Source of the DNA: an uncultured bacterium
GTDB lineage: Bacteria; Oederibacteriota; JAAXVQ01; JAUVAV01
Reading direction: 5' to 3'
DNA: 63,179 nt
NCBI GenBank assembly: GCA_965371665.1
Contig: CBDUZI010000003.1
Coordinates: 1 to 63,179 of the forward strand
Part shown: piece after piece, positions 1,265 to 63,125 of the stretch
Numbering within the stretch: position 1 is the first letter of the stretch
Layout: every line of letters starts with the position of its first letter
Made by a program: the position numbers and the translations under genes
The notes under the pieces: generated by a model
The model's input: the letters and a program-made list of their open reading frames with translations, nothing else
What the model was told of the DNA's origin: nothing
Database searches by the model: none

Positions 1265-1579
1265 GATTTCTCTCCTAGGCAGACTGCAGGGCTTAAAGCA
1301 TTCGGGAAGGACATGCTTGGTTTTACGTAAGGGTGCTTCCGCAAAATAAAATTGACCACATCGTCCCATTTTCTACGTGCCTCACTATATCACCTTTTAC
1401 CTGAGAAAAGAAGGGCAGGCACATAAAAAGTTAGAGATGGCCGCGCTTTCTTCATCCGCTGGATCCCGGCCTATCCTGGTTGGAAGATTTTTTTAATCAA
1501 CTGCATTTTTTTTTGAAAGGATTTAGTCCGCGCCCTGTCGAACTATATATTGAACCAAATTACACCCGGGAGTGGATTA

Positions 1580-4500: not shown

Positions 4501-7500
4501 GGCTATCAAAGAGAAGCAAATAAAGCAAGACCTGCAAACTTGTATCCAGACCGTAAAGCAGGCCGGGCTTTTAGGCGAAATCAGGCAGGAACTACATGAT
4601 TTAAACAGCACCCAAATCCGGGCCCAGCATTACTTAAAGACTAATCTGCATCTGCTTAAGCAGCAGGTTTTGCTAAGCCGGCTCTTGCAGCAATTTGATA
4701 AGCCGCCTGATGAGGCAACGCATATGCCAGCCGCTTTGCATGGACCCGATATTGATAGGCAGCAAACCTTACAAAAGCCTGATGTCCAGAAAAAACTGGA
4801 AACATCCCGGATGGATCGGGAAAAAATAGCCGCGGCCCTGGACCTGATAAATATTGAAATATCCGCTCAGCTCATGAGCGCAGGGTTGAAATTTAATGCC
4901 GCCCAGGTCAAGTCAACCGCCCAACGCAGCCAGGCCCGGTTCAAAACCCGGCTGGTGGATATGGATAAGCAGTCCGGCCGGGAATGCCGGGATGCGCTTT
5001 TAAACATCAATCACCTGGCAGCCGGAGCTGCGCAGGATATCGGAGACATAATTAAGAATATTCATTTGGCATCTTTCACCTGCGACATTAGCCGGGCCCT
5101 GGCACGCGCTAAAGACCGGAGCAACCGGGCGGCCCAGGATATTGCCGCTGGCCGGGCACCGCCGGATTGGGATATCGCAGGAACACGAAGCGCCAAACCT
5201 CTACCGCAAATATACGAAAATGTTGTCAACCGTGCAGTGGATTTTATCCGGCAGCAGGCTATACGCACACAAGTCCAGCAATCCCTGGACCAGGTTGCCA
5301 TTCTGGGCAACGAGGCGCGCGCGCTGCTGGACCGGCATATTTTGAAAATTAGTGATCATTTGGCCAGGTTCATCTTTGCAGAAGCACGGCCCGCTATGCC
5401 CCTGCTCTCCTCTGCCAATCCGGCCCTGGACAGATTAGCTGAACAAATCGGCCTGGCAGGCTCCCAGTCTCAAATCCTTAAAGAACTCAATAAACTCCAA
5501 AACCTAAAAGACCATTTCAACGCCGGTCTGGAGCGCCAATTGCTGGAAATCCGGAGAGCGGATGCAGCCCTGGTTATGCAAGCTATTGCCGCAAAATATC
5601 AAACCCTGGGCGAGGAATTCCAGGAAGCATGCGGAAAAATTACCTGTCAGCTGAATTCCGGGAACCAGGCTTTGGATCCGGCCTTCAATTTCGTAAATCC
5701 GGGGCAGTTTAAGATTGATCAGGAACTCTTGCGAACCTTGCAGCAGGATGTTTTTACCAGGCTGGTGGAATCCCATCCCATCTTAAAAGAGCTTGAGAAA
5801 CCGAAGGATGTTATTGGCCTCTTGAATAACCTGGCAGCCCAAGGCGGGGCCCAGTTTTCTAAATGGCTGCATCGCACCGAGGCTTATAAACATGCAGAAA
5901 CTTTAGCCCGGCTGAGGCAGGAAGCCAAGCATCTGCTCGATCAGGCTGTTGCGCAAGGTACTATTGACTTGCTTAAAAACGACCTGGGCCGGCTCATGCG
6001 CGAGATAGGGCTCGAAACCAAACAGATCGAGACAATTTTCAGCACAGTCACCGGGCCTCTAAAAGATATGATCCTGCGTTCTGAGTTTATGCAGCAATTG
6101 GATGTTTTTCAACGCCTGCCGGACCTCATCACCGGCCAGATAGATTCTTTCATCGGCGATGTTCAGGCTTTGATAAGCAATAACGCTTTTATGCAATCCA
6201 TTAATGCCTTGGGTAAAAATGTCCTGGCTATCTGGGATCAGCTAAGCGGGGAAAAATCCTGGTCCCTGGCTGGGATGGGTCAAAAATTGGCAGCGCATTT
6301 TAGCGGAGCAGCCGGTTTCGGGCAGACGGCAATAAATCAAGTCCAGGCCTTGATCGCGGATATGGGCGGCTCCCACAACGCCCTTGGCCTATGGGCCGGG
6401 ATCTCGGAAGGTTTTAGTAAATTTGGCGAGAATCTAGCGGGCAGCCTAAAAGATTTCATTACCTCCTCCTGCAATATCGATCTGGGCGCGGCTTTTATGA
6501 ATTTCACTTTATCCCCCGGGCAATTCTTCACTAAAGCCGGAGATATGATCAGCGGATTTATAGCTGACAGTTTTGAGTTTCGTTTCGATTCCTCCGGCAG
6601 CTGGTTCCAGGCAGATCAGGTTTGGGATACAGTGGCCGATATTTTCAATTCCGAGAATTGGAAACTTGATTTTTTCCGGACCGCGGATGGATTTATGCAA
6701 TCCATTTCCGATGGTATCAGCTCATTGGCGGGCCGCGGCCTCGAGTGGGCTCAGAACTGCTGGCAGGAATACCTTGGCCAGGCGCAGGAGTATCTTGACA
6801 TCTTCACAAGCGGGCCGTCGCGATGGCTGGAAGAACTGACCAGCGGAAAGTGGGCGGACTCCATCAACGGTCTGATAGACAAATTCCTGCCCCCTGAGTT
6901 CCAGCCCGCCAAAAGCGCGCTGGAGAAGATTTATTTTACCTTTGACGCGGATTTTGATTTCTCGGCTGATTATATTTTCAGCGTGCTGGATGACTTGAGC
7001 GTTTATCTGAGTGATGATCTGCGCGGAATCTATGCGGATATTAGTGATCTATACGCGCAAGGACAAGAATACTCCCAAAGAGGACAAGCAGCCTGGGATG
7101 TCATCCAGAGCGGAGATTTAACATCCCTCGCTGTCATGGGCTCCCGGCTGCTTGGTTCCCTGGAAAACCCGGGTCCGGTGTACGTCCTGGGAAACGGCCC
7201 GGCTAGAAATAGAGGAGCGTATGCCAATCACACCGGACAAACCTATCAAAACTACATGGATGATTATCTTGCGCAACTCGACCCCAGCCTCCACAATCTC
7301 CCGGACATTTCGGCCGTAGGGGCGGCCTCCGGTATCCGCTCGAGCAGTTCAAATGTAGGGGCGGACCTCCGTGTCCGCCCAGGCAGTTCAAACGTAGGGG
7401 CGGACTTCCATGTCCGCCCGGGTATTTCCGACGCCGTCGCTGATGTCGATGCGCCCTTACTGGAAAAACCCGAATTATCTGCTCCGCGCGGCGGTATTCC

Positions 7501-8846: not shown

Positions 8847-8938
8847 CTTGTAATTCCCCGTAGATTGCTACGGGGTTACCTGATGGAGTTCCCCCTTTGG
8901 AAAAGGGGGCTAGGGGGATTTTACTGCGGGGAGAATTC
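8847..8938. repeat. Family-2b MITE-like element
   Basis: Termini 'cttgtaattccccg' / 'cggggagaattc'. Core 'ccccctttggaaaagggggctagggggatttt'. Its reverse complement aligns with 21985-22090. Confidence 0.75.
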
Positions 8939-20056: not shown

Positions 20057-20282
20057 AATCATCACACCCTTAGTTTGCGAATAATTCCGTCCCGTTTTCG
20101 AACTCACCCATCCCGGCAAGCCGTAGTTTGACTATATCATAAAACTCTTCCGCCGCAGGGGGGGGATTTCATGTTTTAATTTAACCTCGCCTCTGCCCTG
20201 AACCAAATGGTTCAGGGCCTGACTCTTTCTCGTAATCAATATCTAATGGAGAAAGGCAATTTTGGGCAAACACACCCCATTT

Positions 20283-20368
20283 CGTCACCCCGGCGAAAGC
20301 CGGAGTCCAGGCCCAAAGTTTACTTATAAAGTCGCTGGATTCCGGCTAAAACCATACCGGAATGACGG
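20283..20368. repeat. Family-1 element
   Basis: 'cgtcaccccggcgaaagccggagtccagg ... ctggattccggctaaaaccataccggaatgacgg'. Confidence 0.75.
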
Positions 20369-21422: not shown

Positions 21423-22847
21423 GGTTATAAGGTTAAGCGACTTGAGGCGGCCCAGGGCCCGGCGGGCCGGAGCAATATTATATAAGGACCCGGCTACCAG
21501 AACCGTTCCCCGTATGCCGGCAGCCTGTACGGCCTTTTGCAGGGCTAACCGGAAGCTGCGTTGCGGTTCGGCTTTTACTCCTGCTGCCTGGAAACACTCT
21601 GCCAGTTCCTTGGCCGGCAAGGCACGCGGATCCGGCGGCGCAACTGTCCACACAGTTTTGGCTGCTTTGACAAATTCCCGGCACATGCCTTTTACGTCTT
21701 TGTCCCGGACTATGCCTGCCACTAGATAAACTTTTTCTGAACGGGAATGCCATTCCCGGATAAGCGCACGTACGGCTGCGGGATTATGTGCACCATCTAA
21801 ATATATTTTTGGCTTTTGGCTGACAATTTCCATGCGGCCGGGCCAGCGCGCGCATTTAAATCCTTGGCAGATGTCTTCTCCGGATATCTGATAACCCGCC
21901 TTTTGTAAATTATGCATTGCCAGGAATGCCAGCGCCGCGTTTAAAACCTGGAATTCACCCTGCCAGGGTATATGAATTTTAAATGAATTCTCCCCGCAAC
22001 AAGTTGCGGGGTATCTGACCGGATTGATTATTTGTAAAATCCCCCTAACCCCCTTTTCCAAAGGGGGCACTCTATGCGGGGAATTACAAGTTAAATCCCG
22101 TTGTTTCACGATTAATTCTATTTGCAACCCTTTTGGGGTTCTTTTCCAGGCCTTAACCTGCACCGCATCTTTGGAATTCATGCCGGCAAATTCTATCGGA
22201 AAGATCCTTTCGCGGGCTTGTGCCCGCATCAGGCCGCGGATTCCGGGATGCGCTTCGGCGCTAAGCAGTGGCACGCCTTTCCGGGCTATGGCGATTTTTT
22301 CCCCACAAATAGCGCTCAAACTGTTTCCCAGTTCCCGGGTATGTTCCAAACCTATATTAGTCAGGATAGAGAGTATAACGCGCTTCCCGGCTGAAGTGGC
22401 ATCCAGGCGGCCGCCCATGCCGGCTTCTACCAGGGCCAAATCTATTCCGTCCTGCCGGAAAACCTCGGCTGCCAAGACTGTCCAGGCCTCGAAGGTGGTG
22501 GCCGGAGTTCCGGCTTGTTGCAGGGCTTTTAGTCCCGGTAATAATTTCTGACCCGCCGCGGCAAAAGCGCGCTGAGAGACTTTTTTTCCATTCAGGGTTA
22601 TGCGTTCCCGTTCATCCTGAAGGTGGGGCGAGGTAAAGCAGCCCACCCTATAGCCGGACTGGGTTAAAACCGCGCTCAGCAGGGCCGCGACCGAGCCTTT
22701 GCCATTAGTGCCGGTAATCTGCACCGCCGGATAGGCGGCGTCAGGATGGCCGAGATATGCCAGAAGCTTGCGCGTTCTGGCCAGGCCGGGAAGAACCGCG
22801 CGGATGGTTAGTTGATGCAGCGCTGCCCGGACGCGGGCATAGTTCAT
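21417..22847 (-). CDS. folC: Folylpolyglutamate synthase / dihydrofolate synthase, carrying an in-frame repeat-element insertion
   Basis: 'VQITGTNGKGSV' P-loop and 'GEFQVLNAALA' motif. A 4-nt overlap with accD matches the classical accD-folC pair. Residues LTCNSPHRVPPLEKGVRGILQIINPVRYPATCCGENS are encoded by a dispersed repeat (21985-22090). Confidence 0.85.
   Translation of the reverse strand: MNYARVRAALHQLTIRAVLPGLARTRKLLAYLGHPDAAYPAVQITGTNGKGSVAALLSAVLTQSGYRVGCFTSPHLQDERERITLNGKKVSQRAFAAAGQKLLPGLKALQQAGTPATTFEAWTVLAAEVFRQDGIDLALVEAGMGGRLDATSAGKRVILSILTNIGLEHTRELGNSLSAICGEKIAIARKGVPLLSAEAHPGIRGLMRAQARERIFPIEFAGMNSKDAVQVKAWKRTPKGLQIELIVKQRDLTCNSPHRVPPLEKGVRGILQIINPVRYPATCCGENSFKIHIPWQGEFQVLNAALAFLAMHNLQKAGYQISGEDICQGFKCARWPGRMEIVSQKPKIYLDGAHNPAAVRALIREWHSRSEKVYLVAGIVRDKDVKGMCREFVKAAKTVWTVAPPDPRALPAKELAECFQAAGVKAEPQRSFRLALQKAVQAAGIRGTVLVAGSLYNIAPARRALGRLKSLNLITL
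21985..22090. repeat. Family-2b element inserted in frame in folC
   Basis: 'gaattctccccgc...aaaatccccctaacccccttttccaaaggggg...gcggggaattacaag'. Same termini and core as 8847-8938. Confidence 0.8.
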
Positions 22848-23706: not shown

Positions 23707-23853
23707 GTAACTACTCAGGTACCCCACCAATTAAGGAAATACGAGATGTTGTTTTAAGGCCGTCACCCCGGCGAAAGCCGGGGTCTAGATGAATCTGCCT
23801 TATAAAATCTTCTGGATTCCGGCTTTCGCCGGAATGACGACCTGAGTAGTTAC
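23707..23853. repeat. Family-1 MITE-like element with 14-bp TIRs
   Basis: TIRs 'gtaactactcaggt' (23707-23720) and 'acctgagtagttac' (23840-23853). Core 'cgtcaccccggcgaaagccgggg...ggattccggctttcgccggaatgacg'. Confidence 0.8.
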
Positions 23854-23882: not shown

Positions 23883-24062
23883 GGAGCCTGAACATTTAGT
23901 CTGTTTTTGGTATTGTTCGTCACCCCGGTGAAAACCGGGGTCCAGAAAAGGCTTTAAAATTCAGATTCCTGGATACCGGCCTGTCCTGGATGGTTTAGTC
24001 CAGGGCTTCCGCCGGTATGACGGCAAAACAACAAATAAACAGACTAAATGCTCAAGCTTCCA
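23883..24062. repeat. Family-1 MITE-like element (long variant) with ~24-bp TIRs
   Basis: TIRs 'ggagcctgaacatttagtctgttt' and 'aaacagactaaatgctcaagcttcc'. Core includes 'cctggataccggcctgtcctggatggtttagtccagggcttccgccggtatgacgg'. Confidence 0.75.
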
Positions 24063-31207: not shown

Positions 31208-31276
31208 ATGCTTTTCTCCTTTAATCATGACCGGTTAATATAGAATCAGTTCCTGTTGCGAAAAACAAGTTAAGCT

Positions 31277-31439
31277 CGTCACCCCGGCAAAAGATGTTGT
31301 GTCATAATTCGGATTTTTACACTTTGCCGTCATTCCGGCGAAAGCCGGACTCCATAAAAACATTGTAATATAAGCAGTATGCGTCCTGGATTCCGGCCTG
31401 TCCTGGATGGTTTCGTCCAGGGCTTTCGCCGGAATGACG
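31277..31439. repeat. Family-1 element (long variant) in the holB-ricT spacer
   Basis: 'cgtcaccccggc...ccgtcattccggcgaaagccgg...cctggattccggcctgtcctggatggtttcgtccagggctttcgccggaatgacg'. Confidence 0.8.
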
Positions 31440-32452: not shown

Positions 32453-32620
32453 CTAGGAGTCTGTCGGACTTAAGTCATTCTCCCCCTTTTGTAAAGGGGC
32501 AGGGAGATTTAATCAATAAAACGCCCGCTTTCATATGCAAAATCCCCCTCAATCCCCCTTTTTCAAAGGGGGAAGAGTGCTCAAAATCCGATTTTGTGCC
32601 TAAGTCCGACAGGCTCCTAG
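32453..32620. repeat. Family-2 MITE-like element with ~21-bp TIRs in the tmk-holB spacer
   Basis: TIRs 'ctaggagtctgtcggacttaag' (32453-32474) and 'ctaagtccgacaggctcctag' (32600-32620). Two CCCCCTTTT-N-AAAGGGG(G) hairpins inside. Confidence 0.85.
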
Positions 32621-32659
32621 TAGCCTGTGGCTGCCCCCCATTTACATAAGTTTTACCAT

Positions 32660-33599: not shown

Positions 33600-35318
33600 T
33601 CAAAACAATCCTTTTACTATTCCATCCTCCGTCAGGTCAATATTATTTCCAGCCGGCTGGGAGGGCAACCCCGGCATGGTCCGCATATCTCCCAGCAGGG
33701 GATAAAGAAATCCGGCTCCAACCGAAGCACGTACATCACGCACTGGTATACGGAAATTCCGGGGCCGTCCTTTAAGTTTGGGATCATGCGAAAGGGATAA
33801 ATGGGTTTTTGCCATGCATATCGGAAGCCGGTCAAAACCCATATCCGTATATAATTTTATTTTATTTTCCGCCATCGGCAAATAATCCACCCCATCGGCC
33901 CCATAGATTTTGGTGGCTATAGTCTCTATCTTATCCTTGACCGAAGCCTCCAAGGAATAGAGAAATTTAAAATTCGAGGTTTGATCAGCCGCCGCGACCA
34001 CGGCTTCAGCCAGTTCCCGTCCGCCGGCTCCTCCGCGGGCATGGACTTCCGAGCATACCGCGGCCTGCGCGCCGAATTGCAAGGCTTGCCCGCGCACCAG
34101 TTCTATTTCTTGTTCCGTATCAGTACTAAAACGGTTAATCGCTACGACTACCGGCACACCGTGCAGCCGTACCGCCTGGATATGCTGCTCCAGATTTTCG
34201 CAACCCAGTATAAGCGCTTCATCATTCGGAGCCGCCGCTACTGCCGAATCTAAAGGCTTACCGGGACGGACTTCGAAAGCATTCCCGTGCATCTTCAAAG
34301 CCCGTATCGTACAAGTCAGAATAACCGCGTCAGGCTTCAATCCTGAATAACGGCATTTAATATTCATGAATTTTTCGCATCCGCAATCCGCTCCAAAACC
34401 ACTCTCCGTCACTACATACTCCGCCAAACGCAGAGCCATCTGGTCGGCAATAATCGAAGAGTTTCCATGCGCGATATTGGCAAAAGGCCCGGCATGCACT
34501 AAAACCGGGGTATGCTCCAAAGTTTGCATAAGGGTCGGCATGATGGCGTCTTTCATCAATACGGCCATGGATCCGGCGCATTGCAGCGCCTCGGCCGTGA
34601 TTGGTTGTCCGCTGCGATTTGCACCGATAACGATAGCTCCCAGACGCGTTCGCATATCCTTTAAATCCCGGGCCAAAGCCAGAATGGCCATAACCTCCGA
34701 CGCTACGGCTATATCAAACCCGGTTTCCCGGACACAGCCGTTCTCCCGACCGCCTAACCCGATTACTATTTGGCGCAGGGCCCGGTCTGAAATATCCACC
34801 ACCCGGCGCCAGGTAATTGCGAAAGGATCAATATCCAGCTTATTACCATGCAGCAGGTGGGAATCAATATAGGCGGCCAAGAGGTTATTAGCCAGAGAAA
34901 CGGCATGGATATCTCCGGTTAAATGAAGATTGAAATCCTCCATGGGCACTACTTGTGAATAACCTCCGCCGGCGGCGCCGCCTTTAATTCCGAATACCGG
35001 GCCCAGGGATGGCTGACGAATACAGGTAACCACTCGTTTTCCGATCTTGGCCAGCGCTTGGGAAACCCCTATGGTAGTAACGGTCTTGCCCTCGCCCAGA
35101 GGCGTCGGGGTAATGGCGGTTACATCAATATATTTTCCCGGCGGCTGATCCGACCTGCGCTTGATAATATCCAGATGTACCTTGGCTTTGTATCTTCCAT
35201 AAAGTTCCAAATCCTCGCTGCCTAATCCAAGTTCTCCGGCTATCTCGGATATGGGGCGCAGGATCGCCTTTTGCGCAATTTCAAGATCACTGGGTATTTT
35301 ATGAAGCTTTACGTTCAC
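33600..35318 (-). CDS. fhs: Formate--tetrahydrofolate ligase
   Basis: 'TPTPLGEGKTVTTIG' P-loop; length 572 aa; typical FTHFS motifs throughout. Confidence 0.93.
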   Translation of the reverse strand: MNVKLHKIPSDLEIAQKAILRPISEIAGELGLGSEDLELYGRYKAKVHLDIIKRRSDQPPGKYIDVTAITPTPLGEGKTVTTIGVSQALAKIGKRVVTCIRQPSLGPVFGIKGGAAGGGYSQVVPMEDFNLHLTGDIHAVSLANNLLAAYIDSHLLHGNKLDIDPFAITWRRVVDISDRALRQIVIGLGGRENGCVRETGFDIAVASEVMAILALARDLKDMRTRLGAIVIGANRSGQPITAEALQCAGSMAVLMKDAIMPTLMQTLEHTPVLVHAGPFANIAHGNSSIIADQMALRLAEYVVTESGFGADCGCEKFMNIKCRYSGLKPDAVILTCTIRALKMHGNAFEVRPGKPLDSAVAAAPNDEALILGCENLEQHIQAVRLHGVPVVVAINRFSTDTEQEIELVRGQALQFGAQAAVCSEVHARGGAGGRELAEAVVAAADQTSNFKFLYSLEASVKDKIETIATKIYGADGVDYLPMAENKIKLYTDMGFDRLPICMAKTHLSLSHDPKLKGRPRNFRIPVRDVRASVGAGFLYPLLGDMRTMPGLPSQPAGNNIDLTEDGIVKGLF

Positions 35319-35458: not shown

Positions 35459-36880
35459 TTATTTTTTCTTTTTACTGCTCTTCTTTTTGCTGCTTTTCTT
35501 GCTTTTTTTCGCCTCGGTCTTTTTCGAGACAGTCGCATCCGGTTTAGACTCCGGAGTAGCAACCTTGGTCAGGTCGTCCTGGGAAACTCCCGGTATTTGT
35601 TTTGCCGGCGCCCGCGTCCTGGTTTTGGCTTTTTGCCGGCTATCCATTTTCTCAAGTACATTCTGAATACGCCTTTTAATCCATCGGCTTTTTTCTTGTC
35701 CCAATGCCTGTTTAAGAATGCTTTTGGCTTGGGAATTCTTTATTTCCCCCAAGGCGGAAACCGCAGCCCAGCGCACGCGCTCTATTTCATCTTCCATCAG
35801 TTTACTTAAGGCCTTAATGGCCTGGTTACCTTTTATCCGGCCTAAGGCTTCCGCGGCCTCTTCCCGAACATACTCATCTTTATCTCCGGCCATTTTAAGA
35901 ATAATACCAATATTCCTGGCATCCGCTATTTGAGCCAGCGCATGCGCGGCCGCGGATCGGACTACCCGCTTCTTTTCCGTAAGCAAGGGAAGCAGTACCG
36001 GAATAGCTCTCTGGGCACCCAACCGGCCTAAGGCCAAGGCCGCCTCCCGGCGCATGGAACTATGCTCATCACTCAGCGCCCGGATTAAAACGTCCTCGGC
36101 CCGGGCATCACCGATATTTCCCAGCGCCATAATAGCGGAACGCTTAGGATAAAGTTCCTTTTTCCCGGTTAACTGGATTAAATCCGGTACTGCGGCCCGG
36201 GCTTTTATCCTTCCCAGGGCCATGGCAGCATCGCCCTGCAGCATTGGTACATTTGAACGGAGAGCGCGCCGAATATGATCAACTACTTGGTCACCTTTAA
36301 ACTTGGTCAAGACCCAAATAACCCGCCGCTGAACGAGAATCTCCTTGTCGTCCAGCGCTTTATATAAATCCGGCAAAACGCTTCTATCCGGGGATAAACC
36401 CAAGGCGATTACCGCCTGCTCCCGGACTTTGGTTGAAGGATCCTTAAGAAAACCCTTGATCGCCGGTATTTTCTCTTTTCCTCCCAATTTAACCGTGGTC
36501 AAAACCGCCGCCGCCCGGACCTCCCCGCTTTTATCTTTCAACAGAGGCTCAACCTGATCCAGTTGTGATTTGTCGCCCCACGCCCGCATGGATACTAAAG
36601 CATTGGCGCGTACTTTCTCGTCCTTATCCTGCAGGGCTTTAAGCAGCTTTGGCACTACGGATTTATCGCCTACGCCGCCTAGCGACATAACCGCCCGGCG
36701 CCGCTCGGCCGGATCATTGGAATCGAGCATGCGTGAATATTGACTGATCATGGATTTTCTTTTGTGTTTCCAAGAGCGAGGCGATTGTAGTTGCAGAGCC
36801 GCAATAATCGCTCCAGCCGCGGCCACCAGCACTACCATGATAATCCAGATGATCTTGGTTTTCTGAGTTGCCATCCCCAT
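35459..36880 (-). CDS. Membrane-anchored HEAT-repeat (PBS-lyase type) protein with poly-Lys/Ser tail
   Basis: N-terminal TM IIWIIMVVLVAAAGAIIAAL. More than 10 repeats of the form 'xxVRxxAxxALGxxGDxxAVPxLxxxL'. C-terminal 'KKSKKSSKKKSSKKKK'. Confidence 0.75.
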   Translation of the reverse strand: MGMATQKTKIIWIIMVVLVAAAGAIIAALQLQSPRSWKHKRKSMISQYSRMLDSNDPAERRRAVMSLGGVGDKSVVPKLLKALQDKDEKVRANALVSMRAWGDKSQLDQVEPLLKDKSGEVRAAAVLTTVKLGGKEKIPAIKGFLKDPSTKVREQAVIALGLSPDRSVLPDLYKALDDKEILVQRRVIWVLTKFKGDQVVDHIRRALRSNVPMLQGDAAMALGRIKARAAVPDLIQLTGKKELYPKRSAIMALGNIGDARAEDVLIRALSDEHSSMRREAALALGRLGAQRAIPVLLPLLTEKKRVVRSAAAHALAQIADARNIGIILKMAGDKDEYVREEAAEALGRIKGNQAIKALSKLMEDEIERVRWAAVSALGEIKNSQAKSILKQALGQEKSRWIKRRIQNVLEKMDSRQKAKTRTRAPAKQIPGVSQDDLTKVATPESKPDATVSKKTEAKKSKKSSKKKSSKKKK

Positions 36881-36990
36881 CCTCCTTATCGAATCAGGTA
36901 GATAATAATTTCATAAACAAAAAAGATTATAACATATCATTAAAAAACACGCATTAAAAAATATAAGCCGCATGTAATATTCAGCGTCGG

Positions 36991-37067
36991 CAGGAGACCG
37001 TCGGATTTAACAACTAAAGACGTTTTTCCGAATCCCCCCTTTTCAAAAAGGGGGCTGGGGGGATTTT
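36991..37067. repeat. Degenerate family-2 element
   Basis: 'caggagaccgtcggatttaa' is TIR-like. Core 'aatccccccttttcaaaaagggggctggggggatttt'. Confidence 0.55.
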
Positions 37068-37189
37068 ACAAATAATAAATCAGGTTGGCTACCCTGGGGC
37101 TTGTCCCAAGGCGGTTCATTCCAAAAAGGAATGAATTGATTGTCTGCTTTTCTTATTATCTCGTTTAGTATCACGTTTATATTTTAGTA

Positions 37190-37559
37190 TCACGTTTTAC
37201 GCCAGCAAGCGCTTCTGCCAGTTCCTAAAACCTTGACTTTCCCTTTGTCTCTCAACCCCTCCAAAACGTTGCGGATCATGGGACGGCTTACCCCAGGGCA
37301 AGCCCGTTCAATATCCGAGATGGAAAAGTCCCCCATTTGTCTTTCAATCGCCGCTATAACAATCTCCGTTTTGGCGCCTTTGGCCGGCTTGATATTTCGC
37401 GCCCGTGCTTCAACTTCTTTGTAAGCCTCCAGTTATGGTACCGAGAAAATAATTGAACCACGAAAAAACATCATGCTTGCCCTTATATTCAGAAATGGCG
37501 TTCATCAGCCACACCGAACCCAGCGGGAGCTTAACCGCATCATTTATGAATGAATTCAT
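37190..37559 (-). pseudogene. Degraded Fic/DOC-family gene remnant (N-terminal stub plus out-of-frame C-terminal winged-helix)
   Basis: My own translation of the minus strand. ATG 37559 gives 'MNSFINDAVKLPLGSVWLMNAISEYKGKHDVF...' and stops at 37410. A second frame (about 37425-37190) reads '...KTEIVIAAIERQMGDFSISDIERACPGVSRPMIRNVLEGLRDKGKVKVLGTGRSACWRKT*', which is like the C-terminal wHTH of Fic proteins. The central HxFx(D/E)GNGR core is absent. Confidence 0.35.
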
Positions 37560-37621
37560 TTGCTTTCTCCGTTCATATCAGAGGTATAGAAGCCCATATT
37601 CCATCTGCCCTTTCGCCCGGT

Positions 37622-37752
37622 CACTTCGACATGCTCAGTGACCGTGGGCGAATCAATCAAAAAACGGTCGTTGAGCTGTTTGTCGGGCTGGTGGCTGAGC
37701 TTGTCGATACAATAAAGTGTCGGGCCCGGTGGCTGAGCTTGTCGAAGCCACT
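37622..37752. repeat. Family-4 cluster (GAGCTTGTCGAA / TTCGACAAGCTC motifs)
   Basis: 'cttcgacatgctcagtgacc', 'ggtggctgagcttgtcgatac', 'ggtggctgagcttgtcgaagccac'. Confidence 0.75.
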
Positions 37753-37969
37753 CGGCCCCTTTGTGGGCGACATTAATCCCTCTTTTAAAACAACGTTTTT
37801 CTTATACCTGGCACCGTGCGCCCAGTATCTTTTTCTTTAATTTTAAATAAACCTCATAATGTGTCATTGCCAAGGTATTAGAAATTGGCGCAGATGCCGT
37901 TTGTCCTGGTTGTATGCGATGTTTAGATATATGAGTGGCCGAAATCCTTGCGCTTGGCCAAGCCACAAC

Positions 37970-39040
37970 TCATGGTATTACCTCAATCTCTCCAGATCGC
38001 GAAAATCCATATATCTTGTCAGTCAATCGGCATAAATAAGGTATTAGTCCATCTCCAAAAAGACCATGGTATTTCCCATTGAAACCAAAACTATCGCGCA
38101 CTTGTACATTCTTGTTAAAAGCTGATATTAAATTGCTGGCTTGCTGGTTGGAAATCCGTTTTATGAACGGTAACAGTTCAGACAAAGGGTTTGCGTCATC
38201 ATATTCTTGACAATCCCGGATAGCTTTGATGTATGCGTTCAACATCCGATCATGCGACATTAATATTTTTACGATTTCTTTTGCGGCCATATCCCACGAA
38301 CAGGAAATCGCTTGAGACTTTCCTAGAAAACCATACGGATCTTTCCCTAATTTAACAGAAATAATCGGCACGCTTCGTCCAAAAGCAAACCCCACTTCTT
38401 GATCCGTCCAATTACTACCATGGAAGTCTTCCGTCATAAGTGCCACAAACGCATCCATTGAAAAAAGGGCGTTCTCGATTTCACTTTGCCATTCTTCAGT
38501 AGGCCGAATGTCTTCATGCGCCACAAAACCAGATATTCCGAAAAGCTTTAGTTTTTCTTTTAATTCTGCTGTTTCTTTTTTAACTTCGGTTTTGTGGCTA
38601 AGAAACAATCTATACCCATCATTCCCCCAGATACGGTTCACGGCTTCGGGCAGAATAGCACGCTTGCCTGCCAAAAGCTTTCCGGATTCTTTTCGCCAAT
38701 CTCGTTCTTCTACGCGTTCCATCTCTAAAAAAACACTGTCGATAAACTCATCCTGAACATTATGAACTTTATTTAGATCATCCTTTATTTGCTTCTGTAG
38801 TTTATCCTTTTTCTTAGCAGCGCTAATATATAATATTTCTGGCATTACCAAATAAAGGGCATGACCATATGTAATACCGCCCATGTTCTCGTAACCACAT
38901 CCTTCATGGACCCTTATTTGAGAATTTACGATAATTTCCTGGAGTTCTTTTTGCCCATCATTCGCGTATAATTTTGAAAGCACCGCCAAATAATGCTCGA
39001 TATTCGAGGATAGTTGCAATTGAGATTCTTGTTCGCTCAT
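37970..39040 (-). CDS. TIR-domain protein with uncharacterised N- and C-terminal domains
   Basis: Central 'YRLFLSHKTEVKKETAELKEKLKLFGISGFVAHEDIRP...MDAFVALMTEDFHGSNWTDQEVGFAFG' fits the bacterial TIR/DUF1863 pattern (FISH ... S-x-W ... E). The gene is visibly lower in GC than its neighbours. Confidence 0.6.
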   Translation of the reverse strand: MSEQESQLQLSSNIEHYLAVLSKLYANDGQKELQEIIVNSQIRVHEGCGYENMGGITYGHALYLVMPEILYISAAKKKDKLQKQIKDDLNKVHNVQDEFIDSVFLEMERVEERDWRKESGKLLAGKRAILPEAVNRIWGNDGYRLFLSHKTEVKKETAELKEKLKLFGISGFVAHEDIRPTEEWQSEIENALFSMDAFVALMTEDFHGSNWTDQEVGFAFGRSVPIISVKLGKDPYGFLGKSQAISCSWDMAAKEIVKILMSHDRMLNAYIKAIRDCQEYDDANPLSELLPFIKRISNQQASNLISAFNKNVQVRDSFGFNGKYHGLFGDGLIPYLCRLTDKIYGFSRSGEIEVIP

Positions 39041-39165
39041 ATCGTTATCCTTACTTCTCCACTCATCAACTTTGGCAATAGCGTATCTTGCAAATTTCCA
39101 AGATTGACGGTGCTGCCAGTGTAATAAGTCCCGTCAGCACATTAAAGAATACACATATAAGGCAT
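39041..39165 (-). pseudogene. Truncated second copy of the GIY-YIG gene 5' end with a nonsense codon
   Basis: 39106-39165 is ~89% identical to 39531-39590. It reads MPYMCIL-TAA-CADGTYYTGSTVNL, against MPYMYILECADGTYYTGSTVNL in the intact copy (GAA to TAA at codon 8). Its ATG overlaps the intact gene's stop (TAATG). Confidence 0.65.
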
Positions 39166-39590
39166 TACTCGCGCCTCACATTAGTCGCTTCGACAAGCTC
39201 AGCGACCACTTTTATTTCTATCCTTTTCTTGCACTCTCCCTGAGCCGTTTGCTGAGCCTGTCGAAGCAGGCGACCGGTCCCTGAGCTTGTCGAAGGGACA
39301 TTTCTGGGATACTGTGTATAGTTTTTTGCCAATTCAGGTAATTTGTTATACTCCGCTTCAAACAATACCTTTTTCTTTGCATGACTCCAGCCCTGTACCT
39401 GCTTCTCCCGATAAAACGCCTCGTCAACTCTTGCGTATTCCTCCGCATAGACGAGTCTAACCGGATGTTTTTTCCTAGTATAGTTCGCTCCGAGCATATT
39501 TTTATGCTCCCAAAGCCGCTTTTCAAGATTGACGGTGCTGCCGGTGTAGTAAGTCCCGTCGGCACATTCAAGGATATACATATAAGGCAT
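39165..39590 (-). CDS. GIY-YIG nuclease-superfamily protein (UPF0213/YhbQ-like) with a repeat-derived C-terminal tail
   Basis: 'YMYILECADGTYYTGSTVNLEKRLWEHK' (GIY...YxG motif), 'RLVYAEEY...A..REKQVQGWS'. The tail 'PSTSSGTG..RLLRQAQ..VVAELVEA' is encoded by GAGCTTGTCGAA-type repeats. Confidence 0.8.
   Translation of the reverse strand: MPYMYILECADGTYYTGSTVNLEKRLWEHKNMLGANYTRKKHPVRLVYAEEYARVDEAFYREKQVQGWSHAKKKVLFEAEYNKLPELAKNYTQYPRNVPSTSSGTGRLLRQAQQTAQGECKKRIEIKVVAELVEATNVRRE
39184..39300. repeat. Family-4 cluster inside the 3' end of the GIY-YIG gene
   Basis: 'gtcgcttcgacaagctcagcgaccac', 'gctgagcctgtcgaagcagg', 'ccctgagcttgtcgaaggg'. Confidence 0.75.
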
Positions 39591-39640
39591 TATTCACAAG
39601 CTCCAATGCTGATTCTGGCCGTTTTTCGTTTGCTTCAACA

Positions 39641-39780
39641 GGGTCGTTTCGACAAGCTCAACGACCGGTTTGAATCCAAGCTCAACGACCGGTTTGACTG
39701 ACTGAACGACCTTGCCGACGCAGCCGAAGTACCGATCCCTAAGCTTGTTTAATTTCCTGTCCCCGAGCTTGTCGAGGGGC
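39641..39780. repeat. Family-4 cluster upstream of the GIY-YIG gene
   Basis: 'ggtcgtttcgacaagctcaacgaccgg', 'caagctcaacgaccgg', 'ccccgagcttgtcgagggg'. Confidence 0.75.
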
Positions 39781-39783
39781 CGC

Positions 39784-40074
39784 TCATTCAACACTCCTTA
39801 ATAACCCGGGCGCAATTTTCCAATTTTCATTGTCATCAGTTATAACCGAAACCGTTTTTTTATGCATTGCGTTAATAACCCCCGTCTTAACCAAGCCATC
39901 GGAACCGGTGAAACTAACCCGCTGGGTTAAATGGAATTTTGCCATTTTTTCGCTGCTTTGTACCTGGGAGAGAACTTTAAGGCGTTCACAAATCATACGG
40001 TTCAGATAAATGAGATCCTTCGCGCTCAAGGTCTTGATAAAATCTTCTATGCGGGGTATATCCAATTCTTTCAT
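39784..40074 (-). CDS. Hypothetical 96-aa protein
   Basis: Clean ORF with no overlapping alternative. No motif recognised. Confidence 0.4.
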   Translation of the reverse strand: MKELDIPRIEDFIKTLSAKDLIYLNRMICERLKVLSQVQSSEKMAKFHLTQRVSFTGSDGLVKTGVINAMHKKTVSVITDDNENWKIAPGLLRSVE

Positions 40075-40089
40075 TCTTTCCCTCCAGCA

Positions 40090-40168
40090 GTAGGGACCGG
40101 TCGCGACCGTTTCCTACGAAAAAATCAAATCCGCGTTGTCTGTAGGAACAGGCATGCCTGTTCCCTAC
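40090..40168. repeat. Two GTAGG...CCTAC-type palindromes (family 3)
   Basis: 'gtagggaccggtcgcgaccgtttcctac' (40090-40117) and 'gtaggaacaggcatgcctgttccctac' (40142-40168). Confidence 0.75.
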
Positions 40169-40193
40169 GAAACCGTCTATCCGGTCCGATGGT

Positions 40194-41300
40194 TTAACCG
40201 CCGGGATAAATTTCATCCAAATCCAAATACTGCTCCACCAGCATTGCGGCATGTTCTATCTTGTCATGCTCCAGCGGACGAATTTTAACCATCAAATCAT
40301 GGATCCGGGAAGCCACGGTATAGGTATCCTGGTTACAATTAATCACCGGTATTCTGGTGCGATGGATTAAATCCATAATAACCGGATGCGGCATGGTCTC
40401 TCCGGTCAGGACAATGCCGGCCACCATTTCGGGGTGGCTTTCTCCCTTGTAGAGCGCCATCCCAATAGCCGCCAAAATAATATCTTCCCGGTCTCCCGGG
40501 GTAATAATCAAAGAACCGGTTTTGAAATAATTCAGAGCCTGATGAACGCTCATGGCGCCCACCAGATTGTGCCTCACCGCCACCTCCAAGGCATTCTCCG
40601 GCAAGTCTCGGCTGATTAGTTCCCCTTCAATTTCTTCCAGAACTTCCTTTAGGGTCGGCGCCGAAAGCACATCATCGTAGGGCAGCACGCCTAAAACTTT
40701 AATGCCTCTCTGTTTGAATCCCTTAACTACCAGTTCTTTTATCTGGTCATATTTGTCCATCTTCACTTTATTAATTACCACCCCGGCTAATTCCACTCCC
40801 TCTTTCTGCAAAAACACACTGCTTAAGGCCACTTCATCAATCGGACGTCCTACCCCGCCGGGAGCCACTATTACCACCGGGGCCTTTAATAATTTAGCGA
40901 CCCTGGCATTGGAAAGCCCAAAAACCGAACCCACGCCCGCGTGCCCGGTTCCCTCGATTACCACAAAATTCCGGTCCTGGCTGACTCTCTCATATGCTTC
41001 CCGGATTTTTACTTCCAATTCTCCTCCCCGGCCGTGCTTAATATATTGGGCTGTAAATCCCCTTCCTACCTTTACCGGATTCATATCCTGCAAGTCAGCG
41101 CCGGTATTGAAAACCATCTCCATAAGCAAGGCATCTTCATCAACCGTTCCTTGCTCGCTCTCAACGGTTCTCTGTCCCACGGGTTTAATATAGCCGATAT
41201 TTTTTCGGCTATGATGCAAATTTCCCAAAATCCCCAAGGAGAGCATGGTCTTTCCCACGTTCTGGTGCGTAGCCGCAATAAAAATCTTTGGCGTACTCAT
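40194..41300 (-). CDS. Pta N-terminal-like protein (BioD/CobQ-type P-loop domain plus DRTGG domain), no acetyltransferase domain
   Basis: 'IFIAATHQNVGKTMLSLG' P-loop, 'IIEGTGHAGVGS', 'LIITPGDREDIILAA' (DRTGG-like). Confidence 0.65.
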   Translation of the reverse strand: MSTPKIFIAATHQNVGKTMLSLGILGNLHHSRKNIGYIKPVGQRTVESEQGTVDEDALLMEMVFNTGADLQDMNPVKVGRGFTAQYIKHGRGGELEVKIREAYERVSQDRNFVVIEGTGHAGVGSVFGLSNARVAKLLKAPVVIVAPGGVGRPIDEVALSSVFLQKEGVELAGVVINKVKMDKYDQIKELVVKGFKQRGIKVLGVLPYDDVLSAPTLKEVLEEIEGELISRDLPENALEVAVRHNLVGAMSVHQALNYFKTGSLIITPGDREDIILAAIGMALYKGESHPEMVAGIVLTGETMPHPVIMDLIHRTRIPVINCNQDTYTVASRIHDLMVKIRPLEHDKIEHAAMLVEQYLDLDEIYPGG

Positions 41301-41320: not shown

Positions 41321-43756
41321 TTAAGCGCCGCTTTTCCTCTGTTTTAATAATTGCTTAACAAGTTCCACGCATTTTACGGCATCTGACGCGTAACCGCCAG
41401 CCCCGATTTCATCGGCATACTGTTGGGTAACCACTGCTCCTCCCAGTATCACCGGAATCCCCAGACCTCTCCGGCGAACCAGCGAGACCACCTTTTCCAT
41501 TTCCAGCATGGTAGTAGTCATAAGGGCGGATAATGCGATAAATTTCGCCTTATTTTCGATGGCTTTCATTAAAATAGTATTCTCATCCACTGATTTACCC
41601 AAATCCACAATTTTATATCCGTTATTCCGTAATAGTAAACCCACTATTTTTTTTCCTATATCATGGACATCGCCCTTAACCGTCGCCAGAATGCCTACGT
41701 CCTGGGCGCCTTGGTTTTCTTGTTTAAGATAAGGCATAAGGCATTGCATGCCCTTTTCCATGGTTTCCGCCGAAGCAATCAACTGGGGAAGAAAGTATTC
41801 CCGCTGATCATATTTCTCTCCCACAATTTGAATGGCTGGAATCATTATCTTCTGAACAATATCATAAGCCAACAGGCCTTTTTTCAGGCCGGCTTGGACA
41901 AGTTCCTGGATTTGCGTCTTTTCTCCCTGGAGAATGTTTTCATATATTTCTCTATCCAGGGAAATTTCCGCTTCTATTTTATGGCGCTTTGCCCGAGACT
42001 CTGGTGCTCCCTTGCTCGTGCATTGATTAATGAATTCACGAGCGCCCTCATCCCGGCCGATTAAAACCTCGGAACTGCGCTTGATTTTCATTAATAACGG
42101 TTCCATGGGATTTGCTATCACCAGGGATAAACCGGCTGATGCCGCCATGGCTAAAAACGCGCTGTTCAAAAATTCCCGGCCCGGCAGGCCAAAAGAAATA
42201 TTGGATAGACCCATGATAGTATTAAGGCCCAGTTCCCGGGAGGCGTAACTTATAGTGCGGAGAGTAATATTAGGTCCGGCCGGATTGGCGGAAACCGCCA
42301 ATACCAGTCCATCCACTACGGCATTTTCGCGGGGAATACCGTGCCGCTCGCAGGCGGCCAAAACCCGTTCCAGCACCTTTTGGCGGCCTTCCCAGTCCGC
42401 TGCGATACCGTCTCCATCCAGCGGCAGTATAATGAAGGCTGCGCCGTATTGCCGAATCACGGGCAGCAGTTTGTTCAGTTTTTTTGCCTCTCCTGAGATG
42501 GAATTCACCAATATCCGGCCCGGATATAAGCGCGCCGCGGCCTCGATTACTTCCGGCTGATCAGAATCAATACATAGGGGCAGATCCGAAAAAACCGCTA
42601 ATTCAGAAACTACCTTGAGCATAACATCTTTTTCTCTAATACCCGGCATGCCCACATTAACATCCAGAATATCCGCCCCGTTTTCTTTCTGCTCTTTGGC
42701 GTAAGTTTTAAGGATATCTAATTTCCCGGCCTTTAATTCAGCTTGAAGCTCCGCCTTGCCGGTGGGATTTATTCTCTCTCCTACTACGCGAATTGGTTTT
42801 TCCGGATCGCATGCCACAACCATGGTTTTTCTGGGACTGGATAAAAGCAGGTGCTTGTTTTCCCGAAACCTTTTAATTCTGGTTTTATGCTTTAGCCGTT
42901 GGTTTAGTACCCGGATATGCTCCGGCGTTGTGCCGCAACACCCTCCCAAAAGGCTGACCCCCGCTTCCCGGAAGGCTTCGCCGTATCCGGAAAATTCCTC
43001 CGGCCCCATGGAAAAACGGGTTTCACCTTTTTCCACCACGGGTAAACCGGCATTGGGTTTTACCAGGATCGGAATTCTGGCGTAGGCATTGATCTTTTTA
43101 ACCATTTCCAGCATTTGCTGCGGCCCGGCAGAACAGTTGAACCCGAAACCGTCGGCTCCCAGGGATTGAAGAATATTCATGCATGTCAAGGGATCGCTGC
43201 CGGTTAAGGTTTTTCCACTTTCATCAAAAGTCATGGAAATGATTACCGGACGCGAAGCCGCCTGCCTGGCCGCCATTAAAGCTATTCTGGCTTCCTGGAT
43301 ATCGATCTGGGTTTCAATTACTATTAAGTCAACTCCGGCCGAATCCAAGGCTCGGATTTGCTCACTAAAGATTTCCAGCCCTTGGTCCAAGCCCGCCTCT
43401 CCGTAGGGTTGGTAAAAAATCCCGGTAGGCCCGACATTTCCCGCTGCCCATCTCCCTTGGGAATGAGCTGTTTCCAATGACAACTCAGCCAGCCGTTGAT
43501 TAATATCGGCAACTTGTTTTTCAAGCCCATAATCACGAAGTTTAATACGGTTGGCTCCAAAAGTCGGCGTATAGATGATCTCCGACCCGGATTCAAGATA
43601 TCCAGCCTGGATTTCCCTGATAATCTCCGGATGCTCAAGACAGTAAACCTCAGGCGATCCTCCGGAAGGCATTCCCATTTTTTGCAGCATGGTTCCGGTT
43701 GATCCATCCAGTAAAATAAGATTTTTATTTGAACTTAAATCTAATTTATTCTTCAT
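41321..43756 (-). CDS. metH: Cobalamin-dependent methionine synthase, short form (Hcy, pterin and B12 domains; no activation domain)
   Basis: 'LLDGSTGTML', 'GGCCGTTPEHI' zinc site, 'ERINPTG' pterin domain, 'GDVHDIGKKIVGLLLRNNGYKIVDLG' (DxHxxG B12 motif). Ends after the B12 domain. Confidence 0.88.
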   Translation of the reverse strand: MKNKLDLSSNKNLILLDGSTGTMLQKMGMPSGGSPEVYCLEHPEIIREIQAGYLESGSEIIYTPTFGANRIKLRDYGLEKQVADINQRLAELSLETAHSQGRWAAGNVGPTGIFYQPYGEAGLDQGLEIFSEQIRALDSAGVDLIVIETQIDIQEARIALMAARQAASRPVIISMTFDESGKTLTGSDPLTCMNILQSLGADGFGFNCSAGPQQMLEMVKKINAYARIPILVKPNAGLPVVEKGETRFSMGPEEFSGYGEAFREAGVSLLGGCCGTTPEHIRVLNQRLKHKTRIKRFRENKHLLLSSPRKTMVVACDPEKPIRVVGERINPTGKAELQAELKAGKLDILKTYAKEQKENGADILDVNVGMPGIREKDVMLKVVSELAVFSDLPLCIDSDQPEVIEAAARLYPGRILVNSISGEAKKLNKLLPVIRQYGAAFIILPLDGDGIAADWEGRQKVLERVLAACERHGIPRENAVVDGLVLAVSANPAGPNITLRTISYASRELGLNTIMGLSNISFGLPGREFLNSAFLAMAASAGLSLVIANPMEPLLMKIKRSSEVLIGRDEGAREFINQCTSKGAPESRAKRHKIEAEISLDREIYENILQGEKTQIQELVQAGLKKGLLAYDIVQKIMIPAIQIVGEKYDQREYFLPQLIASAETMEKGMQCLMPYLKQENQGAQDVGILATVKGDVHDIGKKIVGLLLRNNGYKIVDLGKSVDENTILMKAIENKAKFIALSALMTTTMLEMEKVVSLVRRRGLGIPVILGGAVVTQQYADEIGAGGYASDAVKCVELVKQLLKQRKSGA

Positions 43757-62872: not shown

Positions 62873-62990
62873 ACTGGATTAGACAGAAAACCAGGTGGAA
62901 TATTGCTGATATTTTGCTTTTTTTATTTTCAGAGTGAATGTTTGCCCTAGGGCAACTCAAGAAGGGATGTTATCTCTCTGTAACCGATGA

Positions 62991-63125
62991 CTAGGAGCCT
63001 GTCGGACTTAGGCACAAAAGTGAATTTTGAGCACTCTTCCCCCTTTGAAAAAGGGGGATTGAGGGGGATTTTGCATATGAAAGCGGGCGTTTTATTGATT
63101 AAATCCCCCTGCCCCTTTACAAAAG
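62991..63125. repeat. Family-2 element, inverted near-identical copy of 32486-32620, truncated at one end
   Basis: My manual alignment of its reverse complement to 32486-32620 gives 4 mismatches in ~135 bp. It has the 'ctaggagcctgtcggactta' TIR but lacks the second TIR. Confidence 0.85.

Follow-up and report, generated by a model that had tools for sequence, protein, structure and literature searches.

A TIR gene with an hsdS tail and hairpin-flanked GIY-YIG genes in an apparently fast-changing islet behind a pta-like gene

Introduction

Defence islands and hotspots lie at fixed sites between conserved genes, where they are empty or variably loaded from genome to genome and combine lower GC content with pseudogenes and repeat debris. 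Here, we describe a site of this kind in a contig of 63,179 nucleotides (nt) from an uncultured bacterium of the Oederibacteriota (assembly GCA_965371665.1, contig CBDUZI010000003.1; the whole stretch is hereafter called the window), in which an islet separates the gene of a HEAT-repeat protein from a pta-like gene. An initial annotation had described the islet as a defence or mobile-element hotspot undergoing turnover, filled with a decayed Fic-type gene, a TIR-domain gene, two GIY-YIG copies, a 96-codon open reading frame (ORF96) and dispersed repeats, termed families 2, 3 and 4. Compared to the described islands, the islet is only 3.1 kb long, has no integrase or tRNA anchor, contains a single plausibly active defence gene and turns over visibly among genomes of 85-98% identity. 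We consider it probable that this is an accessory defence islet behind the pta-like gene, which was invaded and reshaped by a selfish element composed of a GIY-YIG gene and hairpin repeats. There is nothing unusual about an islet of this sort; the noteworthy parts are its TIR gene, apparently derived from a restriction-modification (R-M) operon, and the partnership between GIY-YIG genes and hairpins.

Each of these parts has a described counterpart. Type I R-M operons can carry an embedded gene in the slot flanked by hsdS and hsdR, the prototype being that of the PrrC anticodon nuclease. Homologues of the islet's TIR gene hold the same slot, with a start that overlaps hsdS, and the copy in the window keeps an hsdS tail; here, however, the effector is a TIR domain instead of an anticodon nuclease, and the R-M genes are gone. 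With ThsB of the Thoeris system and other bacterial TIR defence proteins, the islet protein shares the TIR_2 domain, a conserved glutamate and weak matches to the ThsB and ThcB4 models, but the islet is devoid of ThsA or ThcA, the private N- and C-terminal domains of the protein lie outside any model, and its scores are far below the cutoffs. The GIY-YIG protein calls to mind free-standing homing endonucleases, such as the Seg proteins of phage T4 and I-TevI. As in these, a catalytic domain is encoded by a small gene placed between unrelated genes, in many genomes and in varied places, but only about 95 residues are conserved in the present family, comprising the catalytic core without a recognisable DNA-binding domain. 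The hairpins of family 4, in turn, are reminiscent of repetitive extragenic palindromic (REP) sequences and their RAYT partners (REPtrons, REPINs), in which hairpins with covarying stems form inverted pairs or clusters flanking a small nuclease-type gene (PMC3116915, PMC3733652), and in which the palindromes carry a conserved GTAG or CGTC tag (PMC3733652). Family 4 is alike in its short covarying hairpins, inverted pairs and clusters on both sides of a small nuclease-type gene. It differs in that this gene encodes a GIY-YIG protein and not a Y1 (HUH) transposase (no Y1_Tnp domain occurs in the islet), that the conserved part of the hairpin is the loop and not a GTAG or CGTC tag, and that the hairpins stay by the gene in the DNA seen here. 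A GTAG tag is carried by the palindromes at 40090-40168, the window's only two GTAGG..CCTAC palindromes.

Results and discussion

The junction in related genomes

Scanning the pta-like protein against 185,579 species genomes yielded four loci (L001-L004), and a fifth, L107, was reached via its TIR protein of 91% identity. The nearest metagenome-assembled genomes (MAGs) of the source lineage are labelled Ca. Firestonebacteria and FCPU426. In L001, which is about 85% identical to the window overall at the nucleotide level, the junction is empty: the HEAT gene follows 171 nt after the pta-like gene, and about 45 nt occupy the place of positions 36985-40167 of the window. The junction is likewise empty in L003 and L004 (~70% nucleotide identity), which have spacers of 100-160 nt. 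The two other relatives are loaded with different cargo. L002 (~87%) harbors hairpins, the GIY-YIG gene, a GIY-YIG::hsdS chimera (see below) and the TIR gene, without ORF96 and without Fic, and L107, whose pta-like gene is 97.8% identical, harbors ORF96, the TIR gene and an intact Fic gene of 343 codons. Presence, absence and alternative cargo at one junction indicate a strain-variable accessory islet, at a site that appears to be turning over fast within this lineage. The proposal of an accessory islet between housekeeping genes was thus borne out, and the hotspot in turnover likewise found support in the variable states of the junction together with the defence- and mobile-type cargo; a cargo conserved in synteny across distant relatives was not seen. 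Given mean nucleotide identities of 87.0% between the window and L002, 85.5% between L001 and L002 and 84.5% between the window and L001, with outgroups at ~70%, the simplest history would be a single gain of the islet after the split of L001, followed by diversification.

All items that had been listed between the HEAT and pta-like genes were recovered, and the minus strand is the coding strand for every gene across 33.6-43.8 kb, islet included. The borders of the islet required one correction. The two family-3 palindromes are both present, but the empty site of L001 also contains a degenerate version of palindrome 1 (GTAGGGACCGGTCGCGACCGTTTCCTAC, 40090-40117). The inserted block should therefore start at ~40089, and palindrome 1 would be an ancestral intergenic hairpin outside it, of which L107 has a compensated version. 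Palindrome 2 (GTAGGAACAGGCATGCCTGTTCCCTAC, 40142-40168) is a GTAG-type hairpin located 25 nt past the pta-like stop codon and is absent from L001 and L002. Together, the two GTAGG..CCTAC palindromes compare with 0.17 expected. By this comparison, the inserted block would span ~36985-40089, or ~3.1 kb. The ancestral state of palindrome 1 is one of three points that go beyond the initial annotation, the others being the hsdS fossil and the link between family-4 hairpins and GIY-YIG genes.

How the islet arrived is suggested by L107, in which a 115-nt direct repeat flanks it on both sides. The repeat comprises the last 54 nt of the pta-like coding sequence, the stop codon, the spacer and palindrome 2. 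The first 56 nt of the two copies are identical and are followed by a 16-nt indel and ~50 nt at ~85% identity. To us, this repeat looks like an attL/attR pair or a homology-anchored illegitimate join, and the first arrival may have occurred by recombination at the pta-like 3' end, despite the lack of a recombinase gene. Instead of a second copy of this end, the window and L002 carry a family-2 repeat at the corresponding position. Taking the L107 repeat as attL/attR, one could view the islet as a stripped integrative element (prophage satellite, integrative and conjugative or mobilizable element, or a CIME-like derivative) that entered site-specifically at the pta-like 3' end, with the GIY-YIG gene and hairpins as later passengers. 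We find this account rather unlikely: none of the three occupied versions contains an integrase, recombinase or relaxase gene, the direct repeat is missing in the window and L002, and the four proteins tested had no match to phage families, save for matches of Fic to families of unknown function. Moreover, among 2.9 million viral contigs, no close relatives of ORF96 and only distant relatives of the TIR protein were found. A plasmid search returned distant TIR relatives only.

The TIR gene and its hsdS tail

The TIR gene (37970-39040) encodes a protein of 356 residues that matches the Pfam TIR_2 profile with 51.5 bits (cutoff 28; residues 146-253, E 1.8e-13) and consists of an N-domain (1-135), the TIR domain (~143-253) and a helical C-domain. 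It has more than 1,700 homologues, the best of which align over the full length with 59-69% identity; those with assigned names come from Ignavibacteriales, Planctomycetia, Deltaproteobacteria and Nitrospirota. Across an alignment of 32 sequences, no variation occurs at F146, H149, K150, S209, W211, T212, D213, Q214 and E215. The putative catalytic Glu215, which we take to be the catalytic glutamate from general knowledge of TIR NADases, resides within the invariant SxWTDQE motif. The N-terminal 135 residues occur in 191 representative clusters, and TIR_2 was also found in 10 of 10 that were tested, with AbiJ_NTD3 preceding the N-domain in two representatives.

The genomic context of the homologues points to a particular home. 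In six of nine homologue lineages, the gene is part of a type I R-M operon, with hsdS or hsdM on one side and hsdR on the other, and in five of the nine it directly follows hsdS with a 4-nt overlap with the hsdS stop. Of the three remaining homologues, one adjoins a type II R-M system and HigBA, another Bro-N in a lipopolysaccharide cluster and the third a Y1 transposase. The other neighbours change from context to context, which leaves no fixed partner, and a ThsA-type partner (SIR2, Macro, SLOG) was found neither in the islet nor in the nine homologue contexts.

In the window, the 55 nt upstream of the TIR start, read in the frame of the truncated GIY-YIG copy, encode GNLQDTLLPKLMSGEVRITI*, and the stop of this segment overlaps the TIR start codon as ATGA. 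The peptide corresponds to the conserved HsdS C-terminus seen before TIR homologues (for example ..HLRDTLLPKLMSGEVSVKL and ..HQRDLLLPKLMSGEVRVAL), and the segment at 39037-39099 represents the last ~20 codons of hsdS. When five HsdS C-termini from TIR-carrying operons were compared to the whole window by tblastn, 39040-39102 was the unique best match (E 2e-6 to 1e-3), the next best having E >= 0.43. Immediately upstream lies the second GIY-YIG copy (39100-39165), which comprises codons 1-22 only and is 89% identical over 76 nt to 39520-39595, around the start of the intact gene. The GIY-YIG codons are fused in frame to the hsdS codons. This chimeric ORF is open in L107 and L002 (42 residues), and it is broken in the window alone, by a TAA at codon 8 (39142-39144). 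The segment had been annotated as a nonsense-mutated 5' fragment of a GIY-YIG gene; the nonsense codon is indeed there, but instead of a plain fragment we find a chimera with the 3' end of hsdS. Behind the TIR gene, a search for the missing 3' half of the truncated GIY-YIG copy matched hairpins only, and remnants of other R-M operon genes were detected neither there nor before ORF96.

Given that the hsdS 3' end is still attached to the TIR gene and that six of nine homologue lineages have the gene inside such operons, the TIR gene appears to have escaped from a type I R-M operon, cut out together with the hsdS tail and joined to a GIY-YIG gene. The islet can be read as a frozen record of a defence gene leaving one genomic home and settling in another, with the hsdS tail fused to the GIY-YIG start as direct sequence evidence of the cut-and-join event. 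A link between this TIR family and hsd operons was not found in the literature, for which only open-access papers were covered, so novelty is unproven.

As to its present role, the TIR gene is likely the functional defence gene of the islet. Its product may act as a stand-alone abortive-infection NADase, with infection sensed by its private domains at both termini and NAD+ consumed in response. Homology to known defence systems is limited. In the PADLOC-type scan that had been proposed for the islet, the TIR domain gave weak matches to ThsB-type and ThcB4 models, but no defence model was matched in full length; the NCBIfam model of Thoeris type III ThcB4 (NF058526) scored 47 bits where 220 are required, and its alignment was confined to the TIR region. 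These best family matches, the tight coupling to hsdS in five of nine lineages and the lack of R-M genes within the window would also fit a protein that forms the signal-producing half of a Thoeris-like pair, or that depends on type I R-M like PrrC, and is now a non-functional, decaying orphan. We regard an orphan as unlikely, since the ORF has stayed intact in the window, L107 and L002 (88-91% amino acid identity) while Fic decayed meanwhile, no ThsA-like partner recurs among the varying neighbours, some homologues stand alone beside Bro-N or a Y1 transposase, and the ThcB4 score is far too low. With ~356 residues and its many homologues, this uncharacterised TIR family is a candidate single-gene anti-phage system or a candidate guard of type I restriction.

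Two observations concern TIR homologues elsewhere. TIR-bearing type I R-M operons (L005-L010, L014-L015, L017-L020, L105, L106) hold varied extra genes before hsdR, including RhuM, AAA_13, AIPR with CSD, DUF6978 with DUF1828/1829 and a RecQ-like helicase, AAA_15/21 and HamA-like genes; such operons are small defence islands within hsd operons. In L016 (5001-6601), the TIR homologue adjoins a Y1 transposase gene of the IS200/RAYT type; the insertion is flanked by dxs on one side and by an ftsJ-like gene, broken into two parts, on the other.

GIY-YIG genes and family-4 hairpins

The intact GIY-YIG gene (39165-39590, 141 residues) belongs to the superfamily by its Pfam score of 60.3 bits (cutoff 22.6; residues 2-73, E 2.3e-16), with 19.9 bits against a cutoff of 56 for the NCBIfam model grpIintron_endo; neither this protein nor the ORF96 protein had a match in PADLOC, NCBIfam or PHROGs. 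Its catalytic core is encoded by ~39303-39590. Residues ~96-141 (39165-39302) are the read-through of three hairpins at 39276-39299, 39247-39270 and 39184-39207, which make up the family-4 cluster at 39184-39299, so that the cluster described as the tail of the intact gene could be mapped hairpin by hairpin. The C-terminal 45 residues (..PSTSSGTGRLLRQAQQT..VAELVEAT..) are these translated hairpins, and similar tails in database proteins are probably repeat read-through and not a protein domain. The two other annotated clusters are also in place. The one downstream of the TIR gene (37620-37751) has units at 37620-37643 and 37729-37751 and a broken unit at 37691-37710, and the one upstream of the intact GIY-YIG gene (39643-39781) has hairpins at 39643-39666 and 39758-39781 and a partial unit at 39677-39697. 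The arms 39273-39299 and 39643-39669 are inverted, 85% complementary and bracket the intact GIY-YIG core. The TIR gene sits between the GIY-YIG::hsdS chimera and the cluster at 37620-37751, which is kept in L002 and partly in L107.

A family-4 unit consists of a variable stem of 6-8 bp and the conserved loop GAGCTTGTCGA and occurs in both orientations. Allowing up to three mismatches, the 14-mer TGAGCTTGTCGAAG has 13 matches in the window compared to 3.5 expected. With at most one mismatch, eight of the nine loop matches in the window and all ten in L002 fall within the islet, and L001, L003 and L004 have none. Beyond this lineage, a scan of metagenomes with the GIY-YIG core gave 561 relatives, and the best 80 loci (L025-L104; 57-80% identity over residues 1-95) were analyzed. 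The 379 kb around these 80 genes contain 254 loop matches, with ~6 expected by our calculation, and the density amounts to 4.0/kb in the 200 nt upstream and 6.9/kb in the 200 nt downstream of the core, compared to ~0.15/kb farther off. A properly paired hairpin of the class GAGC-N2-4-GTCGA is present in 56 of the 80 GIY-YIG loci and absent from 364 kb of control loci.

The hairpins are also preserved as structures. In 108 distinct hairpins, all 8 stem pairs show two-sided, compensatory changes, with 186 two-sided-change cells where shuffling gave 73.8 +/- 6.4 (none of 500 shuffles reached the observed value), and the covariation score is 0.533 as compared to <=0.215 for slid registers. There are 34 distinct perfect 6-bp stems among the family-4 hairpins, and outside the loop only CG at positions -8 and -7 is conserved. 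According to these statistical and structural data, the hairpins are real and are linked to GIY-YIG genes. Both orientations are about equally common upstream and downstream of GIY-YIG, and G-T pairs are rare (5-11 vs 224-237 Watson-Crick pairs at inner stem positions), which suggests that the structure forms in the DNA and not in a single transcript. Hairpins working as RNA, as terminators, mRNA stabilisers or regulators whose proximity to GIY-YIG reflects gene regulation only, would equally have covarying stems and sit in clusters at gene ends, some of them transcribed within the GIY-YIG ORF. Yet an RNA role is quite improbable in view of the equal orientations and the scarcity of G-T pairs. 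In addition, no T-run follows the hairpins, a promoter and terminator scan gave the same counts as shuffled sequences, and Rfam had no match in 36000-41000 at E <= 1.

In 14 loci, sister hairpins with a 12-nt loop, GAGCG[A/G/C]AGTCGA, flank GIY-YIG genes. The density of the sister loop is 0.54/kb near GIY-YIG and 0.032/kb away from it, and loci without family 4 often bear the version GAGCG[A/G]AGTCGA. Two GIY-YIG copies occur in five of the L025-L104 loci. In L107 (2160-2290), a scaffold gap of 10 N follows right after the GIY-YIG start, and the ORF96 3' end is repeated beyond the gap; this could reflect alleles with and without an intact GIY-YIG gene in the population, or a scaffolding artefact.

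An interpretation in two layers

Taken together, the islet probably comprises two intertwined layers. The first would be the defence and accessory cargo, namely TIR, ORF96 and Fic. The second would be a selfish unit of a small GIY-YIG nuclease gene plus hairpin repeats, which are clustered on both sides of the core and behind TIR, so that the TIR gene would now lie inside the frame of this unit, between the GIY-YIG 5' end and a hairpin cluster. The nuclease may act on its own hairpin DNA in the manner of an Slx1-type structure-specific nuclease, and the resulting breaks could drive the capture, duplication, deletion and replacement that distinguish the window, L107 and L002. Both the mobility of the unit and the function of TIR are inferred here from comparison of sequences. 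If the nuclease does act on the hairpins, the pair would constitute a new enzyme-repeat partnership beside RAYT and REP. The link would also account for the repeat translated as "LSLSK/FDKLS", which litters many uncultured bacterial genomes, and for odd C-terminal tails. We found no literature tying GIY-YIG genes to REP-like repeats among open-access papers, which leaves novelty unproven.

A wider generalisation is offered as a tentative suggestion, more doubtful than the reading of the islet itself: small GIY-YIG genes and their cognate loop-conserved hairpins (GAGC-N2-4-GTCGA) might form an undescribed class of selfish elements, REPtron-like but run by GIY-YIG and able to lift neighbouring genes, which in this case would have moved TIR with a piece of hsdS from a type I R-M operon to a new site.

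Several findings weigh against our interpretation. As for the mobile unit, among the 54 GIY-YIG loci that extend at least 400 nt to either side, 26 are free of family-4 loops over these 400 nt. No site was found to be occupied by the GIY-YIG/hairpin unit alone in one genome and empty in another, and the hairpins are not scattered across the 63-kb window, unlike REPs. The capture of TIR counts as one evolutionary event, because the window, L107 and L002 are orthologous, and none of the 80 other GIY-YIG loci has a TIR homologue. Evidence for arrival by recombination at the pta-like 3' end comes from a direct repeat seen in L107 alone, a 5-kb scaffold with an internal gap. As for the TIR protein, PADLOC and NCBIfam defence models matched it weakly and over the TIR domain only, with no full-length match to the family. 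Its AlphaFold2 model was poor, with a predicted local distance difference test score (pLDDT) of 63 and values under 50 for the TIR part, and neither Foldseek at E<=1e-3 nor a sequence profile search found a match in PDB. Since no R-M genes lie near the TIR gene in the window, the protein may be inert here if an R-M partner is required.

The Fic pseudogene and ORF96

The decayed Fic-type gene (37190-37559) of the initial annotation proved to be a pseudogene. Its remnant matches the Fido-domain protein PDB 8uqu_A (E=3.5e-19, chain residues 268-364) and contains a winged-helix DIP2311-like_C domain (2.6e-7). Compared to the orthologue in L107, it retains residues 1-33 and ~246-343, having lost 663 nt (221 codons including HSFRDGNGRVSR) at a junction within a 13-nt microhomology, ATAAGGGCAAGCA; a 1-nt insertion near 37434 additionally shifts the frame. 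With class II Fic proteins, which have a winged helix at the C-terminus (PDB 8uqu), the orthologue in L107 shares HSFRDGNGRVSR, the inhibitory motif SxxxEG in its N-terminal part and the DIP2311-like_C domain, whereas the window copy differs in that the catalytic core, with the HxFx(D/E)GNGRxxR motif, is deleted, which makes it a pseudogene. Judged by these motifs, the gene would be that of a class II Fic AMP-transferase that is dead in the window. No Fic remnant was found in L002, and Fic homologues on plasmids are solitary genes among insertion sequence elements, with no link to R-M.

ORF96 (39784-40074) is a genuine and conserved gene; it has 12 homologues (53-83% identity), itself not counted. 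AlphaFold2 (pLDDT 87) predicts one long helix followed by a C-terminal five-stranded beta-barrel of the SH3/Tudor/KOW type, and Foldseek relates the barrel to Tudor/KOW domains (E 7e-4 to 1e-2, root-mean-square deviation ~1.2 A over ~50 residues). The surroundings of the homologues are accessory, containing toxin-antitoxin pairs, helicases and Fic genes; one homologue is found beside ParE/Phd, a SEC-C protein and an SNF2 helicase. In L021 (4828-6636) and L022, a 58-residue N-terminal fragment of HsdM precedes the ORF96 homologue with a 4-nt overlap, and a Fic_N+Fic gene comes after it, near a group II intron reverse transcriptase and a WYL regulator. ORF96 and Fic might form a pair, but the Fic of L021 is unrelated to the remnant in the window, and ORF96 adjoins a SEC-C protein elsewhere.

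Neighbourhood, composition and other repeats

The islet is flanked by the HEAT-repeat gene (35459-36880) and the pta-like gene (40194-41300, AAA_26+DRTGG), beyond which lie the genes of a formate-tetrahydrofolate ligase (33600-35318) and a MetH-type methyltransferase (41321-43756), respectively. The low GC content ascribed to the islet holds as a moderate effect, with 43.9% compared to 47.9% for the window. The TIR gene (39.8%, and 36% at third codon positions, GC3) and ORF96 (40.9%) lie below the flanking genes, which have a GC of 48-52% and a GC3 of 49-54%, in keeping with an accessory islet.

The HEAT-proximal end of the islet is formed by a degenerate element of the dispersed family 2 (36985-37125), as annotated. 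Its core, CCCCCTTTTCAAAAAGGGGG, lies at 37035-37054 and has 7 matches window-wide against 0.03 expected. The repeat (GTAAAATCCCCCC..CCCCCTTTTTGAAAAGGGGGG..; ~140 nt) is shared with L002 and absent from L001. Further copies are located at 8890-8924, 22022-22068 and 32554-32627, and two stand near the window ends in opposite orientation (23-68 and 62990-63072), where the contig, that is, the whole 63,179-nt record, probably broke at them. Window ends in family-2 repeats, a repeat-rich region and the 10-N gap of L107 beside the duplicated ORF96 3' end are features that an assembly artefact or a chimeric metagenomic join might leave. We hold either to be highly improbable here, as in each of three independent assemblies (window, L002 and L107) this junction contains GIY-YIG and TIR between colinear flanks, and the islet follows the flanks in its degree of identity.

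Elsewhere in the window, three tandem units of 39 nt, each a GTAG-tagged hairpin (GTAGGGGCGGAC..GTCCGCCC), lie at 7300-7428 inside an ORF of 2359 residues (1550-8629). Dispersed intergenic hairpins of the sequence GTCACCCCGGCGAAAGCCGGGGTCCAG occur at 20281-20310, 23759-23788, 23916-23945, 31275-31304 and 31326-31355, and a pair of 56-nt repeats at 23967-24022 and 31384-31439 is 93% identical.

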